This document shows, in pieces, positions 361-7,714 of a DNA stretch of 13,618 bases. The notes beneath the pieces are model-generated. The model did no database searches, was not told the DNA's origin, and saw nothing but the letters and a program-made list of their open reading frames with translations. The position numbers and the translations under genes were made by a program. Each line of letters starts with the position of its first letter. The stretch's first letter is position 1. Location of the stretch: the UHGV virus genome UHGV-1847238; one strand, 5' to 3'. This DNA comes from a virus.

Positions 361-1524
361 TTACACATCATTAGTACCTTCCTTATTTTTTGACTGGGAC
401 AAATTTGGGACCGATGGGTTCAGGATCGAGTCTATTTGCCGTGCGTGTTCGGTAAGGTGATTAGGTGCAAGGTGAGCATATCGACGAACCATTTCGATAG
501 ACTCCCAGCCTCCCATTTCCTGTAACACTGACAACGGGACTCCGGCTTGAACCAGCCAACTTGCCCAGGTGTGTCTCAAGTCGTGAAATCTGAAATCATC
601 AATACCAGCCCGTCTCAGCGCCGCTTTCCAGGCTGTGTTTGCGTCATACCGCATCTTCCTTACTGTTGGCGCTTTCGTTCCGTCTGGTTTGGTACAGCTT
701 TCCTTGTACACAAATACCCAACGGTGATGATTCCCGATTTGTTTTTTCAAAACGCGACATGCAGTATCATTCAGCGCAACGCCAATTGCGCGGTTTGATT
801 TACTCTCTTCCGGGTTTATCCATGCCACCCGGCGCTGCATATCTATTTGTTGCCATTCAAGGTTGATGATGTTCGAGCGTCTTAAGCCTGTTGCCAGTGC
901 AAATTCAACAACAGACTTTAATGGCTCCGGACATTCATCAATCAGCCTTTGTGCTTCATGGGGCTCCAGCCAGCGGATCCGTTTATTCTTTGGTTGAGGC
1001 ACTTTAATAATTGGTGCCTTATCCAGCATTTTCCATTCACGCTCTGCGGCTCTTAGTAGGGCCTTTATAAATGAAAGATGCGTAGCCTTCGTTGCAACGG
1101 ACGCTGGTTTTGGCGTGTATTCTGGAACAGGTTTCCCTTTTTTTCTGCATGCTTCTGCCCTGAGTCTCCAGTTTTCCTCATGACGCCGGTTCGTCATTTT
1201 CTGCATTGCTGAATAAATTTTTGATTCAGTAATGTCTCTTAGTTGCATTCCTGCGAAATGTTGAAGCCAGAATCCGATCCGGCTTTTGTCATCGTCCAGT
1301 GATTTTTTATGTGCTTTCTCTTCAAGCCACCTGACACACGCTTCCTCGAACGTTATATCAGGTATTTCACCAAGTTTGCTGACCCGCCATGCTTCAGCCT
1401 TTAGCTTGTCATGGAGTTCTGTCGCCTGCCTTTTGTCCTTTGTTCCAAGAGACTGTTTAAATCTTTTACCGTTCGGCAATGTGAAACTGGCGTACCATAT
1501 TTCACCTCTGCGGAAGAGTGACAT
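361..1524 (-). CDS. int: Tyrosine-type site-specific recombinase (phage integrase), 387 aa
   Basis: ORF of 387 aa; C-terminal catalytic region [40 protein letters not shown] carries the His/Arg and Tyr residues of tyrosine recombinases. SD-like AGAGGA lies 7 nt upstream of the ATG at 1524. Confidence 0.93.
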
Positions 1525-1751
1525 TTTCTTTCCTCTGTTATGCCATCACCCGCGCTCACCTGGACAGTATGCAGCGGAGACTGAAGAGCCGCAATGCAGG
1601 CTTGTCGTGTTGTGAGGTAAGGAGATTTATTCTTAGTGGGATCTTTGCGTGTTGCCTGAAGACGCCCTGTGCGTATCCAGTTAATGGCAGTCGGTCTGGA
1701 TATCTTGAGAAAATGACAGGCCTCATCGAGTGTGAGGCTGTATGGCTCCAT
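1401..1751 (-). CDS. xis: Excisionase / recombination directionality factor (HTH DNA-binding), about 116 aa; 3' end overlaps int by 124 nt
   Basis: N-terminus [33 protein letters not shown] resembles the Xis/AlpA-type helix-turn-helix. ATG at 1751 overlaps the stop of the upstream gene (TAATG). The ORF track gives a longer 144-aa version from 1835; the exact start and the true 3' end are uncertain. Confidence 0.6.
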
Positions 1752-2056
1752 TATTTCACCTCTTGCTGTGACATTGTTGAAAAATGGATACCAGCTCGTT
1801 GCTGCCAGACGATCCAACCGAGAGTCATATCCCATGCCATGTATTCGTTATCGCCGTTTTTTGCTCTCCGACGATCTACTAAGTCACCGAAACGCTTTTC
1901 CATGAATAATTCATAAGCTTCGCGTTCATCTGGTTCTACTTCCAGAGATAGGAGTGCGATTTCATAAGCACGGCGCTCAATATCGTCTCGCACGTCAAGG
2001 CTGCTGATACGCTCTTTAATTTCTTTAATCAGTTCTTTGTCGGTAAAAGTGGTCAT
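1751..2056 (-). CDS. yfdT: Small acidic phage protein of unknown function, 101 aa (YfdT-like by position and size)
   Basis: 101-aa ORF, translationally coupled to neighbours on both sides (TAATG overlaps). Symbol is from recalled co-linearity with the K-12 CPS-53 yfdP-T block, not from a search. Confidence 0.55.
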   Translation of the reverse strand: MTTFTDKELIKEIKERISSLDVRDDIERRAYEIALLSLEVEPDEREAYELFMEKRFGDLVDRRRAKNGDNEYMAWDMTLGWIVWQQRAGIHFSTMSQQEVK

Positions 2057-2418
2057 TATGCTCCAGCCTCCGGTGCTTTTGGCATTACTGCCCAGTGAGT
2101 GATATTGACGTTTTCAAGGTCCCCGACCTGAAATGTCCATTGCCATTCTCCGGTTTCTTTTTGTCCCCAGGTGTACCAGAGAGAACGCCAGCCAATTAGC
2201 CAGCCTTCTCCGTTAGCATCGAATAACAAAACACTTTCATTTGCTGGTGGCAGTTCAGTTGACACTGGTATTACTTTGTTTTCCTGTGCTGCACATTTAG
2301 CTTCAAGCGCATCGAATTTACGCACCAGGTATTCAGCATCTGTTTCATTTACTTTCAGATCTCGCGGTACACATCTCCCACGAAGAAACCCTTCCATTTC
2401 GAAAACATTCATGCGCAT
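2056..2418 (-). CDS. yfdS: Phage protein of unknown function, 120 aa, Trp-rich C-terminal region (possibly DUF551-like; YfdS-like)
   Basis: 120-aa ORF; start overlaps the upstream gene's stop by 10 nt and its stop overlaps the next start. The DUF551 suggestion is a tentative pattern match. Confidence 0.55.
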   Translation of the reverse strand: MRMNVFEMEGFLRGRCVPRDLKVNETDAEYLVRKFDALEAKCAAQENKVIPVSTELPPANESVLLFDANGEGWLIGWRSLWYTWGQKETGEWQWTFQVGDLENVNITHWAVMPKAPEAGA

Positions 2419-2945
2419 TTGCGTAACTCCGATAACTCGTTAAAGCGTTCCATAAACATCCCGTAGGCATGGCCCGGTGCCAGTGGAATCACGTTGAACA
2501 TCTCTGTTGCCGGGATACCTTCCAGTACAGGCCAGAAAGAGCCATCATCAAGCCCGAGATCGCGGCGTTCGGTTGCCAGCATGATGAGATCGGCATATTT
2601 CACGGGCGTACTCATAACTGGGGGTAACCCGTATTTCTCACGGATTACGGCGTCTATTTTTTCTTCCATTTGTTTATAGTCAGGAAGAAGGCGTTTCAGT
2701 GGTGCGGGAATGTCCTGGCAATACGCTTCTGTTGCATCATGCATTAACGCTTCAAAAGCAAATTCCTGCGGCACCAGCTGGCTGCAAAGAACCGCATGTT
2801 GGGCGACGCTGTAGAAGTGCGAAAGATGACCGGCAAAGCGACAGATATTTGAAAGGGAAACCGCGATATCGTTAATATCGATGTCGTCTTTATTTATCCT
2901 GTCATAATAAAAATGCTTCCCGGAAAAAGTTTTAATAAATGACAT
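2409..2945 (-). CDS. yfdR: HD-domain metal-dependent phosphohydrolase (5'-deoxynucleotidase-like), 178 aa
   Basis: HD-superfamily His...His-Asp motif (RFAGH ... LMHDATEAY). Start taken at the second Met (ATG 2945) because GGAG lies 7 nt upstream; the ORF track's 187-aa version starts at 2972. Confidence 0.75.
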   Translation of the reverse strand: MSFIKTFSGKHFYYDRINKDDIDINDIAVSLSNICRFAGHLSHFYSVAQHAVLCSQLVPQEFAFEALMHDATEAYCQDIPAPLKRLLPDYKQMEEKIDAVIREKYGLPPVMSTPVKYADLIMLATERRDLGLDDGSFWPVLEGIPATEMFNVIPLAPGHAYGMFMERFNELSELRKCA

Positions 2946-3072
2946 TTTGTTCTCCACGTATATGCGCTGCACCGCGCTGAATTCTGGTAAAAAAAATCCC
3001 TCACCATCCGGCGATTATTGAGTAAATTACGTTTCCATAAATGCCCCCGCAGGGGCATTTGCAGTAATGAAA

Positions 3073-3897
3073 TCAGGCGATGAAAGTACCAATAAAGGTT
3101 TCTACTTTGCTGTCCTTGAATTTCTCAACAAGCAGATCACGAAATTCGTTAGCCATTTCTTCCTGCACCGCCTCCAGCTGAATAATGCGCAGAACCAGTA
3201 CAGGACGATCGCCAGTGATAATACTGAGGCGTAATTTAAACGGACGTTCTTTCAGACCTTCAAACGGAACGCATTTAAATTCAAATGCCACTGGCATAAT
3301 GTCTTTGGTCTTCGCTTCGACAGACTCCATCAGGGAGCGTTTGCCGCTGAAGTCATTATCTTCAAAATCAGCGGTCTGGTTTGCTTCAATCGTGATTTTA
3401 CGGACAGCCGCAGCCGCTTTTGTTGCCTGAATAGCGTCACCATTAGCATCAAAGCCCACAAGATAGTCGGCCCAGTCTTCAATCCATTCTGCTAGTGACT
3501 TCTGGGAGTTACGCTCGCCGTTAACAGACAACAGAGCAGAGAACGGTGCTGTCTTTTTCAGTTTGAGTGTGGCGGTGTTATCTGCGTGACCTGGTTCATC
3601 AATAGTACCCAGGTTAAGCACACTGACGGCACGCATATTATCAGCATCGATAAAGCAGCGGGTGCCTTCATCTGCAAGATCTTTAGAATAACGGGTAAAG
3701 TCATCGATGCTGGCAGTGGAAAGCGCACCACGGAAACGGAAGCGATTTAAATTAAATTTTTCCAGATCATGAATGCGGAAATTCTCAGGCAATGCCACAG
3801 CATCGGCACCAATCTTACTGATAATTTCATTAACACCCTGAGCAGAAATAAGGGCATGGATTTGATTAATTGCGGTTGCGTCTAAGTTCTGAGACAT
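3073..3897 (-). CDS. yfdQ: Phage protein of unknown function, 274 aa (YfdQ-like)
   Basis: 274-aa ORF with SD GAGGA 6-7 nt upstream of ATG 3897. No catalytic motif recognised. Symbol from recalled size and position in CPS-53. Confidence 0.7.
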
Positions 3898-3962
3898 AAT
3901 AAGTCCTCACTATATAAAGATATTCAGTGATGAGATAAATAATCAGTTAATTAAGAACGATA

Positions 3963-4325
3963 TTAATGACCTGCTGCGCGAAGTTTTCCGTCAGGTTCAC
4001 CGGCAAGAGTCAGTAATTGTCCCTGGTCTTCCTGCAGAATAGTCAGGCGACCACCGCGATTGACATACATCGGTGTTTCGGTGGTGTCTTCTTCAGAAAT
4101 TTTCCCGCGGTTAGTCGGGCGAACATATGAGAGTTTGTGTTTGATTTTCACACGGTTCTCATCAAACGGTTCGATTTCCAGGTTGAGCGAGACCTTACCT
4201 TTGGTTTTCGTGTTCATCACACCGGAAGCGACTTCACTGAGAACAGCGCCGATTTTGGTTTCAAATACGCCGCCGTCCAGCTCCCCGATAAATGCCTGCA
4301 CATCAGTACTGCGTTCGCTAGCCAT
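3963..4325 (-). CDS. yfdP: Phage protein of unknown function, 120 aa (YfdP-like); first gene of the leftward early operon
   Basis: Start chosen at ATG 4325 (MASERSTDV...) because AGGAG lies 8 nt upstream. The ORF track's 197-aa version starts upstream inside the leader and has no SD. Confidence 0.6.
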   Translation of the reverse strand: MASERSTDVQAFIGELDGGVFETKIGAVLSEVASGVMNTKTKGKVSLNLEIEPFDENRVKIKHKLSYVRPTNRGKISEEDTTETPMYVNRGGRLTILQEDQGQLLTLAGEPDGKLRAAGH

Positions 4326-4461
4326 TTTGCTGCTCCTCATCATATCGACCCTGCAAGGTCGGTTGGTTTCTCCACAAAACAGAGAAGAACACCTGCGGTG
4401 ACTGCCGCCCGGATGGATTGGGTTATGAGCCCGTCGTCCGGTGATGCTCTTCTCTGTTTTG

Positions 4462-4508
4462 TAAAAAGAGCGGTACCAGCCGGAAGCAAGGGTACAAACT
4501 GGTACCGC
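4462..4508 (-). terminator. Intrinsic terminator (tL-like) in the PL leader, just upstream of the early-left genes
   Basis: Perfect 10-bp GC-rich inverted repeat GCGGTACCAG (4470-4479) / CTGGTACCGC (4499-4508) with a 19-nt loop; on the minus strand it is followed by TCTTTTTAC. Confidence 0.5.
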
Positions 4509-4920
4509 CAAAGCAGTGGCTGTTGTGGTGGGGTTGTCACTCAGGCGTATGGTCAACCTGACAATCCGGTGTCCTCAACGGGGAAAGAGTAACCCCGCCA
4601 TACTTACCGCCGCGCCATTTCGCGGATTACCACAACGCTGAGAGCACTTAGCCAGTTACGGCACCACACTTTGTCGCGGCTCCATAAATGCCCTCATCGT
4701 TGCACCCTGGTCTCTTCCCAGGCGTCAAACCGAATCGCCACGCTGGTTAGGCGTCTTATCAGCATCATCATTGACTTGCACATTCCGGCTACCTGGTTTG
4801 TTTGCTCGAGCAAGGAGTGGATTGTCCCCTTTAACGTCACCAGACCGCTAACGACGCATGTGCCATACGCCGTGTTACAACCAAATTTTGTTTTAATCTT
4901 GCCTGTGTTATGTTTCTTTT

Positions 4921-4954
4921 AGATACATTATGTATCTCATGGGTACATTGTCAA
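4921..4954 (-). promoter_or_regulatory. PL-like leftward early promoter with overlapping operator (OL)
   Basis: Minus strand: -35 TTGACA (4949-4954), 16-bp spacer, -10 CATAAT (4927-4932). Imperfect palindrome ATGTATC-N5-GGTACAT (4929-4947) fills the spacer, and a 17-bp palindrome AGATACATTATGTATCT (4921-4937) overlaps the -10. Confidence 0.5.
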
Positions 4955-4957
4955 GTA

Positions 4958-4980
4958 TAAAAAAACCTGCCGAAGCAGGT
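4958..4980 (-). terminator. Intrinsic terminator downstream of the repressor gene
   Basis: Hairpin ACCTGC-CGAA-GCAGGT (4965-4980) followed on the minus strand by a run of 7 T (plus-strand A7 at 4958-4964), 14 bp after the repressor stop. Confidence 0.65.
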
Positions 4981-4993
4981 TCATAAACATTGA

Positions 4994-5668
4994 TTAGGCT
5001 TTGATTTTGTATCTTCTTGGTTTTCCTGAGAAAATCACTGTACCAATTATAGAGCAATTACCGTTGATCTTAATGTAAGGCTCAGGCCAGTTTGGGTTTA
5101 ACGCTTTGAGATAACGCTGTGTCCCATCTTCTATCAACCTTTTGAAGGTGGTTTCACCTGTATCGTGCATCAATGCAATAACGTCGTCACCGTGGCAGGC
5201 AGGTACTTCAGGATCGACAAAAATCATGTCTCCCGGGCGGTACTCATCAATCATTGAATCACCTATCACCCGCAAGATATAAGTCATTTCCCCACAGGGT
5301 ACAGGGCAGGGATACGTTTCTGCTGTGCTCAAATCAACCTCAGAATATCCAACTTCTTTCCATGCTCCGGCCTGTACCCATGATATGACAGGGACTAATG
5401 TGATTTGTTTATTAGTGATTGAAACATCAGGTTTTTTTGTGATGTTCGTTGTCTGGTGTTCTTGATCGAGCCATCCGACAGGCAGGTCGAAACATTTTTC
5501 GATGTGTCGTGCCATGCTGTCACCGATATTTTTAGTAGCACCATCTCCCATAAACCTGCTGGTCTGGGTTGGCTCGCGATCAATCATAGTGGCAAAGGAA
5601 GAATTCCCGCCAACACCATCTCTCAGTTTTCTGGCGTTAGACCGCCGGATGTCATGGATTGTTTTCAT
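4994..5668 (-). CDS. cI: CI-type prophage repressor with C-terminal S24 (LexA-like) self-cleaving peptidase domain, 224 aa
   Basis: C-terminal VIGDSM (Ser nucleophile) and TFKRL (Lys general base) match the LexA/lambda CI S24 dyad. VQAG in the linker resembles the Ala-Gly cleavage site. N-terminal region resembles an XRE-type HTH. Transcribed divergently from cro. Confidence 0.88.
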   Translation of the reverse strand: MKTIHDIRRSNARKLRDGVGGNSSFATMIDREPTQTSRFMGDGATKNIGDSMARHIEKCFDLPVGWLDQEHQTTNITKKPDVSITNKQITLVPVISWVQAGAWKEVGYSEVDLSTAETYPCPVPCGEMTYILRVIGDSMIDEYRPGDMIFVDPEVPACHGDDVIALMHDTGETTFKRLIEDGTQRYLKALNPNWPEPYIKINGNCSIIGTVIFSGKPRRYKIKA

Positions 5669-5683
5669 AACGAAATTAAAACC

Positions 5684-5704
5684 CTTGTACCGTTAAGGTA
5701 CAAG
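5684..5704. promoter_or_regulatory. Operator: perfect palindrome CTTGTACC-GTTAA-GGTACAAG in the cI/cro intergenic region
   Basis: 21-bp perfect inverted repeat read directly from the sequence, 16 bp upstream of the repressor start codon. Confidence 0.6.
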
Positions 5705-5708
5705 TATC

Positions 5709-5755
5709 TTGAAGGTTCATTTCAATCATGTAATATGTACACCGGAGGTACATAT
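5709..5755 (+). promoter_or_regulatory. Putative pR promoter (-35 TTGAAG 5709-5714, -10 TAATAT 5731-5736) with a second operator palindrome ATATGTAC-N7-GTACATAT (5733-5755) overlapping the -10 and the cro RBS
   Basis: Palindrome read directly; it shares the TGTAC/GTACA half-site core with the 5684-5704 and 4929-4947 sites. Promoter hexamers are an approximate by-eye call. Confidence 0.4.
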
Positions 5756-5758
5756 TGT

Positions 5759-5959
5759 ATGAAAGCGTATTGGGACTCTTTAACCAAAGAACAGCAGGGC
5801 GAGTTGGCCGGAAAAGTTGGCTCAACACCTGGCTACTTACGGCTGGTTTTCAATGGTTATAAAAAAGCCAGTTTTGTGCTGGCGAAAAAACTTGAGCAAT
5901 GCACGTCAGGTGCAATTACGAAATCTGACTTAAGACCGGATATCTATCCGAAAGATTAA
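5759..5959 (+). CDS. cro: Cro-like (YdaS-family) HTH transcriptional regulator, 66 aa
   Basis: 66-aa ORF divergent from the repressor; GGAGG 8 nt upstream of ATG 5759; small basic HTH-like protein at the Cro position. The ORF track's 167-aa version starts upstream inside the repressor gene. Confidence 0.7.
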   Translation: MKAYWDSLTKEQQGELAGKVGSTPGYLRLVFNGYKKASFVLAKKLEQCTSGAITKSDLRPDIYPKD

Positions 5960-5990: not shown

Positions 5991-6554
5991 ATGAGGCTAA
6001 CCGTGGGTAAGTATCACTGGAAAGTAGAAAAACAGCCTGAGTGGTACGTGAAAGCTGTCAGAAAAACTATCGCAGCGTTGCCGGGTGGTTACGCTGAAGC
6101 AGCTGACTGGCTGGATGTAACAGAGAACGCATTATTTAACCGCCTTCGTGCCGATGGCGATCAGATTTTCCCGCTGGGATGGGCAATGGTTTTACAGCGC
6201 GCGGCTGGCACTCACTACATTGCGGATGCTGTCGCACAGTCTGCTGGTGGGGTGTTCGTATCGCTTCCTGAAATTGAGGAAGTAGAGAACGCCGATATAA
6301 ACCAGCGCCTGCTGGAAGTCATCGAACAGATCGGGAATTACTCAAAGCAGATTCGTTCGGCAATCGAAGATGGGGTCGTGGAGCCACACGAGCAGACAGC
6401 AATTAATGATGAGTTGTATCTGTCAATTTCGAAGCTCCAAGAGCATGCAGCACTGGTCTACAAAATCTTTTGCGCTCCAGAAAAGAGTGACGCCCGCGAG
6501 TGTGCAGCTCCGGGCGTCGTGGCGTTTTGTGTCTGTGGAGAAACTAACGCATGA
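5991..6554 (+). CDS. CII-like regulatory protein (phage 186 CII/CP76- or YdaT-like family), 187 aa
   Basis: Sits immediately downstream of cro, as cII does in lambdoid phages. Family assignment is a low-resolution pattern match. Stop overlaps the next start (ATGA). An alternative GTG start at 6003 has a better SD (GAGG). Confidence 0.5.
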   Translation: MRLTVGKYHWKVEKQPEWYVKAVRKTIAALPGGYAEAADWLDVTENALFNRLRADGDQIFPLGWAMVLQRAAGTHYIADAVAQSAGGVFVSLPEIEEVENADINQRLLEVIEQIGNYSKQIRSAIEDGVVEPHEQTAINDELYLSISKLQEHAALVYKIFCAPEKSDARECAAPGVVAFCVCGETNA

Positions 6555-7714
6555 ACAGTTTAACGGCAAATAACCGTTTGTCGCAACAGCTGGTGGTCAG
6601 TGTCGCTGAACACCTGTTGTTACGGCATGAATGCAGATTACCAAATCACCTGGCTGTAAGTAACCACAGAGAACTTTACCTGACTGTGGGGGGCGAGTTG
6701 TGCAGGAACTTAACCGCTGGTTTCGTGACGGAAGAGGGCTTTATGTCCATGTTATTCGTTGGGAGCCAGAAACACAGCGCGTTATCTATCTTCGCAAAGA
6801 CTACCCGCATGAGTGCTTTAGTCCTTTGTGGAAATTCAGGCGTGATTTTGTTGAGTGTGAAGGACCACCAGCACATTGATTCTGCCATTCCGGGACGTTA
6901 CACTGTTCAGGCACCTTATAAAGCGGGTGCCGGGATTGGCGTCCTGAAATTGATTACTGAGCATAACCGCGCTCATGCGGTTTTTTCGTGTCATGAGCAT
7001 TGCTACGCCCAAATTATGGTGGGGCGTACAGGGCCGACTTCGGTCGGGCCGGGTTCGGTAGTCTCCGGTAACGCCAACCCTGTACGTCTCACCACCTCTG
7101 TGATTGGCGTCCCATGTGGTGAGTTTTCTAAAAAACTGACTACCGGGGCTGTCACTATGACTACTCTCCCAACCCTCTCTCAACCTGAAATTGCCATCGT
7201 TGATGGTCAGGCTGTTACATCTTCTTTGGCTGTTGCTGACTTCTTCTCTAAACGTCATGACGATGTTCTGAAAAAGATTCGCATTTTGGATTGTTCTCCA
7301 GAGTTTTGTGCCCGCAATTTTGCGGAGACATCAATTTTGGTACGCCAGCCCAACGGCGGTACTCGCAAACTACCTTGCTATCAAATAACCCGCGATGGCT
7401 TTGCGTTTCTTGCTATGGGTTTCACGGGTAAACGTGCTGCCCAGTTCAAAGAGGCATACATCAATGCCTTTAACCAGATGGAGAAACAGCTTTCAAAGCC
7501 CGCTGTACCGAGCGACGTTGCACATAACGCCAGTGTTCTCTATTCCTACATTTCATCAATTCATCAGGTCTGGTTGCAGCAGCTTTATCCCATGCTGGAA
7601 AAAGCTGAATCACCTCTGGCTGTAAGTCTGTATGACCGAATTAACGATGCGGCATTTCTTGCCCGTCTTATTCATTCGTCGCTGAACTCTTCAGAGGTAA
7701 GGGGGCGCAAATGA
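6551..7714 (+). CDS. Rha-family phage regulatory protein ORF, 387 aa; the Rha-like domain begins at internal Met 7157 and the N-terminal ~200 aa are unassigned
   Basis: Residues from MTTLPTLSQPEIAIVDGQAVTSSLAVADFFSKRHDDVLKKIRIL onward resemble the Phage_pRha domain. The frame is open from 6551 and that ATG overlaps the upstream stop (ATGA), but the N-terminal half has atypical composition; see findings. Confidence 0.6.
   Translation: MNSLTANNRLSQQLVVSVAEHLLLRHECRLPNHLAVSNHRELYLTVGGELCRNLTAGFVTEEGFMSMLFVGSQKHSALSIFAKTTRMSALVLCGNSGVILLSVKDHQHIDSAIPGRYTVQAPYKAGAGIGVLKLITEHNRAHAVFSCHEHCYAQIMVGRTGPTSVGPGSVVSGNANPVRLTTSVIGVPCGEFSKKLTTGAVTMTTLPTLSQPEIAIVDGQAVTSSLAVADFFSKRHDDVLKKIRILDCSPEFCARNFAETSILVRQPNGGTRKLPCYQITRDGFAFLAMGFTGKRAAQFKEAYINAFNQMEKQLSKPAVPSDVAHNASVLYSYISSIHQVWLQQLYPMLEKAESPLAVSLYDRINDAAFLARLIHSSLNSSEVRGRK

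Follow-up and report, generated by a model that had tools for sequence, protein, structure and literature searches.

The yfdP-yfdT block in the early-left arm of an SfV-like lambdoid prophage: a possible DnaA-directed host-takeover function and a candidate regulatory leader RNA

What does a lambdoid prophage do with five genes in its early-left arm, at the place where lambda carries exo, bet, gam and kil? The question is raised by 13,618 nucleotides (nt) of the virus genome UHGV-1847238 (this whole stretch is called the window here), in which genes for proteins of 120, 274, 178, 120 and 101 amino acids (aa) lie on the minus strand at positions 1751-4325. A first-pass annotation had placed them in the early-left arm, and this position is confirmed; it had also proposed a co-linearity with yfdP-yfdT of the CPS-53 element of Escherichia coli K-12, and this is correct, with the same order, the same orientation and high identity. 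That annotation regarded the genes as uncharacterised, which is outdated, since binding of DnaA by YfdR and inhibition of replication initiation have been published (PMC4776307); because the cluster is already described there and in PMC12315714, the implied novelty falls as well. The reading that we favour, and in which our confidence is evenly balanced, is that of an early-left host-takeover block whose YfdR, with YfdQ and either YfdS or YfdT, would block DnaA at oriC.

The identity of the block can be stated with precision. It is 96.6% identical in DNA to yfdP-yfdT of K-12 MG1655 over 2575 bp, and the proteins, of equal lengths in both, are 99.2% (YfdP), 98.9% (YfdQ), 97.8% (YfdR), 95.8% (YfdS) and 96.0% (YfdT) identical; compared with orf32-orf28 of phage SfV, the protein identity is 98.9-100%. 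A longer stretch of 3.6 kb (1401-5000) is 98.8-99.2% identical in DNA to the serotype-converting Shigella phages SfV and SfIV, and 99.9% identical to E. coli chromosomes, where RefSeq annotates yfdP, yfdQ, yfdR and yfdT. At least 80% of this stretch is carried by 1038 of 5426 complete E. coli genomes and some part of it by 4985 of them, where it is found at a median of three places. Judged by order and identity, the block is an intact phage-borne version of CPS-53 yfdP-yfdQ-yfdR-yfdS-yfdT, and it makes up the accessory early-left arm of a lambdoid prophage of the SfV/SfIV type. As an accessory block of phages it is very common and has been described before, and it adds little that is new.

The coordinates and sizes of all five genes are reproduced in the list of open reading frames (ORFs): yfdP at 3963-4325 (120 aa from ATG), yfdQ at 3073-3897 (274 aa), yfdR at 2409-2945 (178 aa from ATG, or 187 aa from an upstream GTG in the mechanically called ORF), yfdS at 2056-2418 (120 aa) and yfdT at 1751-2056 (101 aa), all on the minus strand. 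Each of the five starts is preceded, 5-10 nt upstream, by a Shine-Dalgarno-like purine run. The DNA identity to K-12, PHROG matches of the five proteins between 7e-31 and 7e-120, and the match of YfdQ to the Pfam DUF2303/YfdQ family PF10065 (309.7 bits against a cut-off of 26.6, 2e-92, residues 7-272 of 274) are the basis on which the five ORFs are judged to be real genes.

It is already known that these genes can act on replication initiation. Noguchi and Katayama (2016, PMC4776307) obtained yfdQRST as genes that suppress the over-initiation of hda-185 in multicopy; the minimal suppressing set was yfdQ and yfdR plus either yfdS or yfdT, with yfdP dispensable, and the multicopy set inhibited initiation in wild-type, dnaAcos, seqA, DARS and diaA backgrounds. 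In the same study, purified YfdR bound DnaA, the binding needed Phe46 in domain I, and the contacted surface is the one used by DiaA and the DnaB helicase, while extracts oversupplied with YfdQRST inhibited oriC replication in vitro. The authors proposed a role in the ancestral phage analogous to that of lambda P, and named the SfV homologues in this connection (PMC4776307).

Transferred to the window, this would give the following course of events. Loss of the cI-type repressor would derepress a leftward promoter at about 4954-4927, and transcription would run through a leader of some 600 nt and then through yfdP, yfdQ, yfdR, yfdS, yfdT, xis and int. As with the K-12 orthologues, YfdR would bind the Phe46 surface of DnaA domain I, and YfdR with YfdQ and either YfdS or YfdT would block initiation at oriC; the inhibition would belong to the high expression that follows derepression of PL, as a form of host takeover. 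New rounds of chromosome replication would stop, and DnaB, replisome components and precursors would be freed for phage DNA. The HD chemistry of YfdR and the function of YfdP-YfdQ would be additional, separable activities.

Several observations weigh against this host-takeover reading. The functional data were all obtained with multicopy plasmids in K-12, the authors themselves warn that the effect of over-expression could be an artefact, and deletion of yfdQRST changed neither initiation nor hydroxyurea resistance; YfdR alone competes moderately at most, and YfdQ, YfdS and YfdT failed to co-purify with DnaA or YfdR (all PMC4776307). Furthermore, YfdR is missing beside yfdP-yfdQ in Stx2a-type, Vibrio and Xanthomonas phages, and therefore the pair must have a function of its own. 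Homologues of YfdR are also found in phages of Bacillus, Caulobacter and Rhizobium, where a fit to E. coli DnaA is unlikely, which argues that the ancestral role was enzymatic.

The enzymatic side of YfdR was considered as an explanation in its own right, in which YfdR dephosphorylates deoxynucleoside monophosphates (dNMPs), or a specific or non-canonical nucleotide, early after induction, and its binding to DnaA is a side effect of over-expression. The first-pass annotation had recognised an HD phosphohydrolase in the 178-aa protein, and this call is supported by the match to phrog_318 ('deoxyribonucleoside 5' monophosphate phosphatase', 3e-110), by the nearest solved relative, Agrobacterium Atu1052 (PDB 2gz4, 3e-14), and by a motif alignment with E. 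coli YfbR (BLASTP and profile comparison), where H69-D70-E73-D78 and VKYAD119 of YfdR align to HD..E....D and VKQAD of YfbR. Missing metal ligands in the HD protein had been named by the first-pass annotation as grounds for giving up its proposal, and the proposal is not refuted on these grounds; in an alignment of the window protein with 36 diverse homologues, it can be seen that H50 and D78 are invariant, that H69, D70, E73 and D119 are nearly so, and that YfdR has all six. By sequence the HD metal site is intact, which suggests that YfdR is probably still a low-affinity 5'-deoxynucleotidase. Its nucleotide affinities, measured by Zimmerman et al. 2008, fall far below YfbR's, as far as they are summarised in PMC4776307.

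The relationship to YfbR (dCMP phosphohydrolase / 5'-deoxynucleotidase, PDB 2paq) deserves a closer description. The HD, Glu and two Asp positions of YfbR and Atu1052 align with those of YfdR, although the identity between YfdR and YfbR is 29% over 45 residues only. An assignment of YfdR as a YfbR equivalog was tried and rejected, as it scores below both curated cut-offs (25.2 against 25.9 bits for PF12917, and 20.5 against 122 for the NCBIfam equivalog NF003009); it belongs to a related but distinct HD family.

A role as an enzyme of the nucleotide pool is favoured by the conserved full ligand set and the measured affinities, by the huge size of the YfdR family (22,995 clusters at 50% identity, from which the 36 homologues were drawn), by its occurrence in phages whose hosts are unrelated, lytic phages as well as temperate ones, and by its label in PHROGs and RefSeq (dNMP phosphatase / 5'-deoxynucleotidase). 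However, YfdR stays below the cut-offs of the YfbR family, and such a role leaves unexplained both why yfdQ and yfdS or yfdT are needed for the replication phenotype and why the binding depends on Phe46 of DnaA. We consider it unlikely as the main function of the block.

Whether the five genes form one functional module is answered by their distribution. Gene content was compared in 80 IMG/VR loci with near-identical yfdQ, and yfdP is present in all 80 and yfdR in 78, while yfdS and yfdT come and go, with Ea22-like genes sometimes found instead. Among 50,697 phage records, YfdQ matches 184 and YfdP 180, and the two are spread over hosts in almost the same way (Escherichia, Vibrio, Stx phages, Xanthomonas, Salmonella, Shigella, Pseudomonas and Acinetobacter); YfdR matches 324, with another distribution (Bacillus, Caulobacter, Rhizobium, Pseudomonas and others). 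Seven phages, namely those of Citrobacter, Halomonas, Xanthomonas and Acinetobacter and three of Vibrio, have a YfdP homologue (26-40% identity) as the ORF directly upstream of yfdQ, and the order repressor-leader-yfdP-yfdQ-yfdR-variable genes-xis-int recurs in Serratia, Mangrovibacter and Citrobacter prophages. The single five-gene module of the first-pass annotation does not hold: on this distribution, YfdP-YfdQ is an ancient obligate pair, YfdR an independent, widespread phage HD gene, and YfdS and YfdT are exchangeable add-ons.

Residues 50-117 of YfdS give a borderline match to DUF551 (PF04448; 22.2 bits, cut-off 22), and YfdS as a whole matches phrog_583 (1e-82); since its N-terminal 50 residues match other PHROGs, YfdS is itself mosaic. 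YfdT matches phrog_660 (7e-31), and the Pfam scan gave no family for it. No sequence similarity between YfdS and YfdT was found (best E 0.34), and their interchangeability in the genetic experiments is not explained by homology as judged from these comparisons.

The YfdP-YfdQ pair suggests a further explanation, which is that the two proteins act as a unit on DNA intermediates, or on the single-stranded DNA-binding protein (SSB) or the replisome, and support recombination-dependent replication in phages that lack exo/bet/gam. In the window itself, no homologue of a recombination (Rec) module was found by tblastn with exo, bet, gam and kil of lambda and gam, recT, exo and ssb of phage P13374, Erf and Abc2 not being among the queries; neither lambda-type exo/bet/gam nor RecT was found within 6 kb of yfdQ in the 80 related loci. 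The neighbours of the pair in other phages speak for this explanation. The order is gam-recT-exo-ssb-yfdP-yfdQ in P13374, ssb-abc2-yfdP-yfdQ in a Salmonella prophage, and DnaQ-like exonuclease-yfdP-yfdQ-ssb in the Vibrio podophage 34E29.1, and in Xanthomonas phage Tabio a lambda-Exo-like gene stands 3.5 kb downstream of the pair. Deletion of yfdQ or yfdS is reported to make cells sensitive to H2O2, and deletion of yfdQ also to methyl methanesulfonate (PMC4776307). As a separate observation, yfdP of P13374 (and apparently of Stx2a-converting phages too) appears to be split by a frameshift into two small annotated ORFs, ORF19 and ORF18 (5591-5937 of the P13374 locus), and the split gene sits directly between ssb and the DUF2303 gene.

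A structure of a homologue has been deposited as PDB 9o7m ('YfdQ Protein'), which contains 36 chains of one sequence and so suggests a large oligomer. With the YfdQ homologue of Tabio (4004-4828 of that locus) this sequence shares about 95% identity, and it matches YfdQ of the window with E = 3.8e-44 as a single sequence and 8e-58 as a family profile. A full-text literature search found no paper describing 9o7m, and neither the YfdP homologue nor the neighbouring 471-aa protein from Tabio has a match in the PDB. AlphaFold2 models of YfdQ and YfdP (predicted local distance difference test scores, pLDDT, of 77 and 67) gave no informative fold match; the best PDB match by Foldseek had an E of 0.07, and 9o7m was not among the matches in the library releases to April 2026. 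On these models, YfdQ is judged to be an orphan fold. PF27127, the probable family of YfdP, is seen as a precomputed match on a 99%-identical database protein and on all listed homologues, while the scanned copy of Pfam, which is older than this model, gave none.

Against a function of the pair in recombination stand the acidity of both proteins (isoelectric points, pI, of 5.0 for YfdQ and 5.7 for YfdP) and the co-existence of the cluster with complete Rec modules, as in P13374 and in ArgO145. In a panel of Enterobacteriales lambdoid phages, of which 22% have no Rec module of any kind, the HD/yfdQ/yfdP trio was common in early-left operons, its function was unassigned, and it was not specific to Rec-less phages; the trio as a hidden recombination system was judged unlikely because ArgO145 has both it and a complete Rec module (PMC12315714). 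We regard such an accessory role of the pair in replication and recombination as distinctly unlikely, somewhat below the nucleotide-pool role of YfdR. To hypothesize, YfdP-YfdQ may be a large oligomer that acts on DNA ends, SSB or the host replisome.

Position alone brings in the last explanation, also suggested in the first-pass annotation, that one or more of the five proteins counter host immunity or exclude other phages, as genes of this kind (ral, sieB and gam in lambda) are frequent in the early-left arms of lambdoid phages. According to a preprint, over-production of YfdQ led another resident phage, SW1, to form plaques, and the mosaic, variable nature of yfdS and yfdT is like that of other accessory 'ea' genes. 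However, none of the five proteins matched a family of PADLOC-DB v2 at E <= 0.01, the full-text literature search on these gene names found no report of this kind, and the deep conservation of YfdP-YfdQ across phages of Gammaproteobacteria is easier to reconcile with a core phage function than with a gene of the arms race. An anti-defence or exclusion role is, in our view, speculative and improbable, and is the least credible of the explanations that we weighed.

The host-takeover reading supposes that the block is expressed early and from a repressor-controlled promoter, and the layout of the region is consistent with this. The block stands between a cI-type S24-peptidase repressor gene (4994-5668, 224 aa) on one side and xis (1401-1751, minus strand; 116 aa, HTH_17, excisionase phrog_2907) and int (361-1524, minus strand; a tyrosine integrase of 387 aa, Phage_integrase) on the other. 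The first-pass annotation had described the five genes as tightly coupled, which holds for yfdR-yfdS-yfdT and on into xis, where the overlaps are 10, 1 and 1 nt, and fails for yfdP/yfdQ and yfdQ/yfdR, where gaps of 65 and 127 nt are found. The sequences of the junctions show that yfdS/yfdT and yfdT/xis are joined by TAATG overlaps, and from these junctions yfdR-yfdS-yfdT-xis are taken to be translationally coupled. By the 1-nt overlap of the yfdT stop and the xis start, xis and int are likewise read as the distal genes of the leftward transcription unit that includes the block.

The promoter, operator, terminator and leader features described from here on are all in silico predictions. A consensus scan found a PL-like candidate promoter, TTGACA-16 nt-CATAAT (11/12), at 4927-4954 on the minus strand, just after a predicted terminator behind cI (4982-4963, minus strand); both features are annotated at the equivalent places in phage Ayreon. 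The spacer of this promoter holds an operator-like 17-bp palindrome, TGTACC-N5-GGTACA, with one mismatch (4931-4947), and two more copies lie in the cI/cro intergenic region (5686-5702 and 5736-5752). The search with the palindrome pattern gave 4 matches against 0.28 expected, a number that was reached in 0 of 200 shuffles. Promoter and overlapping operator-like palindromes support leftward transcription under control of the repressor, and the early expression from PL that had been assumed for the block is thereby plausible.

Between PL and yfdP lies the leader of about 600 nt, and it is here that the window offers something beyond the known gene block. Its first part (4511-4926, minus strand) is variable, being present in 25-44 of the 80 related E. 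coli loci (for the greater part of it, in 34-36), and no convincing gene was found in it, only short ORFs. Directly upstream of yfdP, conservation and folding point to a structured leader RNA at 4340-4510 (minus strand). It consists of a hairpin, GCGGTACCAG/CTGGTACCGC, followed by a U-run, then of a stem of about 25 bp (4374-4398 / 4438-4462) that surrounds two small hairpins, and finally of a small GC hairpin ahead of the ribosome binding site. Of the last ~185 nt of the leader (4326-4510), at least 77 of the 80 loci have the 3' ~140-150 nt (to ~4480), and 44 have the 5' edge.

For the conserved part, the identity is 96% with SfV and 86% with Citrobacter phage phiNP, whose YfdQ protein reaches only 59%. 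It folds with -92.9 kcal/mol (z = -7.8 against shuffled sequence), and the leaders of Citrobacter and Mangrovibacter retain the long stem through compensatory changes. In Serratia, the architecture and the flanking motifs CUUUUUACA...UGUGGAGA are the same, the sequence of the stem is almost wholly different, and compensatory pairs are again present; as about four lineages were compared, this evidence is suggestive and falls short of proof. Rfam gave no match to the leader at gathering thresholds, and matches at chance level only when E was allowed up to 10, and no N-like gene or protein was recognised in the window. The leader RNA may be a new cis-acting element, e.g., one of N-independent antitermination or attenuation, that gates the early-left operon including xis and int; it could work as a terminator/antiterminator or as an element of translational control.

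A second point of control may lie within the operon. A GC-rich hairpin of 9 bp, AAAUGCCCC-UGCG-GGGGCAUUU (3039-3060, minus strand), lies 12 nt after the yfdQ stop in the 127-nt gap, and behind it the scan gave a terminator-like site, weak and with a T8 run, at about 2991-3014 (minus strand); the annotation of Ayreon has a terminator at the equivalent place. Hairpin and terminator-like site may form an attenuation point that lowers yfdR-yfdS-yfdT-xis-int relative to yfdP-yfdQ.

The remainder of the window is in keeping with its assignment. The right arm holds the families YdaS-type Cro-like, CP76/CII-like, Ash, Rha, PerC, Dam, LexA-like DNA-binding, KilA-N, DUF968 and Q antiterminator, and RusA is annotated in a near-identical relative; by this gene content, the window is assigned to the early region of a lambdoid prophage. 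In this arm, two Rfam matches at gathering level, isrK (59.3 bits, 6911-6987, plus strand) and C4 antisense RNA (82.3 bits, 7012-7099, plus strand), fall inside a long ORF at 6551-7714 that also has Ash and Rha domains. The region looks like a P1/P7-type, antisense-RNA-controlled antirepressor (immI-like), and therefore the ORF of 387 aa is probably not one real gene. Towards the end of the window, the translation of an ORF at 12986-13609 (minus strand), on reading, resembles the C-terminal portion of a DNA cytosine methyltransferase; it is opposite in orientation to the Q antiterminator gene (12606-12962), and the annotation of a related genome has a DNA methyltransferase behind the antiterminator, both on one strand.

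What makes the locus useful is its intact context. The sole functional study used the decayed K-12 copy on multicopy plasmids, whereas the window and SfV offer repressor, promoter, leader and xis-int intact, so that a shutdown of DnaA by a temperate phage on induction can be tested directly. The widely conserved YfdP-YfdQ pair is of continuing interest as well, with a deposited homologue structure (9o7m) and recurrent SSB and exonuclease neighbours. That this pair has an unrecognised DNA-metabolism function and that the leader RNA ahead of yfdP is a new cis-regulatory element is a joint proposal that we put forward tentatively and consider rather doubtful as a whole; if it were true, YfdP-YfdQ would form a new class of DNA-metabolism factors in temperate and lytic phages across Gammaproteobacteria.

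Among known systems, CPS-53 (KpLE1), with yfdP-yfdT as b2359-b2363, has the same five genes in the same arrangement. The window and SfV continue with xis-int, whereas K-12 continues with ypdJ (a xis remnant) and torI; cI, PL, the conserved leader and the full xis-int are apparently intact in the window, whereas in K-12 a deletion has removed the leader up to a point 19 nt from yfdP. As regards ypdJ, its product YpdJ (46 aa; 12095-12235 of the K-12 locus) matches the upstream extension and the N-terminus of the xis ORF of the window (1401-1835, minus strand), and ypdJ is therefore a truncated remnant of a P22-type excisionase gene in CPS-53. The layout int-xis-yfdT-S-R-Q-P-...-cI is shared with SfV, SfIV and SfII, and occurs there in a functional temperate phage; SfV differs between cI and orf32, where it has an additional orf33 and annotated terminators, and where the window is about 400 nt shorter and has other sequence. 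The 'no Rec module' (LLS-type) lambdoid phages, of which ST64B and phiNP have the most closely related early-left operons (PMC12315714), have like the window the HD-yfdQ-yfdP trio and no exo, annealing protein or anti-RecBCD function; the window adds yfdS, yfdT and a P22-type xis-int to the trio of that study.

For the proposed action on DnaA, the nearest counterparts are lambda P, SirA of Bacillus subtilis and Dps of E. coli, which are small DnaA-binding blockers of initiation, as YfdR is (PMC4776307), and none of which has any sequence relationship to YfdR. SirA uses the residue equivalent to Phe46 of domain I, just as YfdR does, whereas lambda P binds domain III and is also the helicase loader of its phage, YfdR being an HD enzyme. 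YfdR needs YfdQ plus YfdS or YfdT in vivo (PMC4776307).

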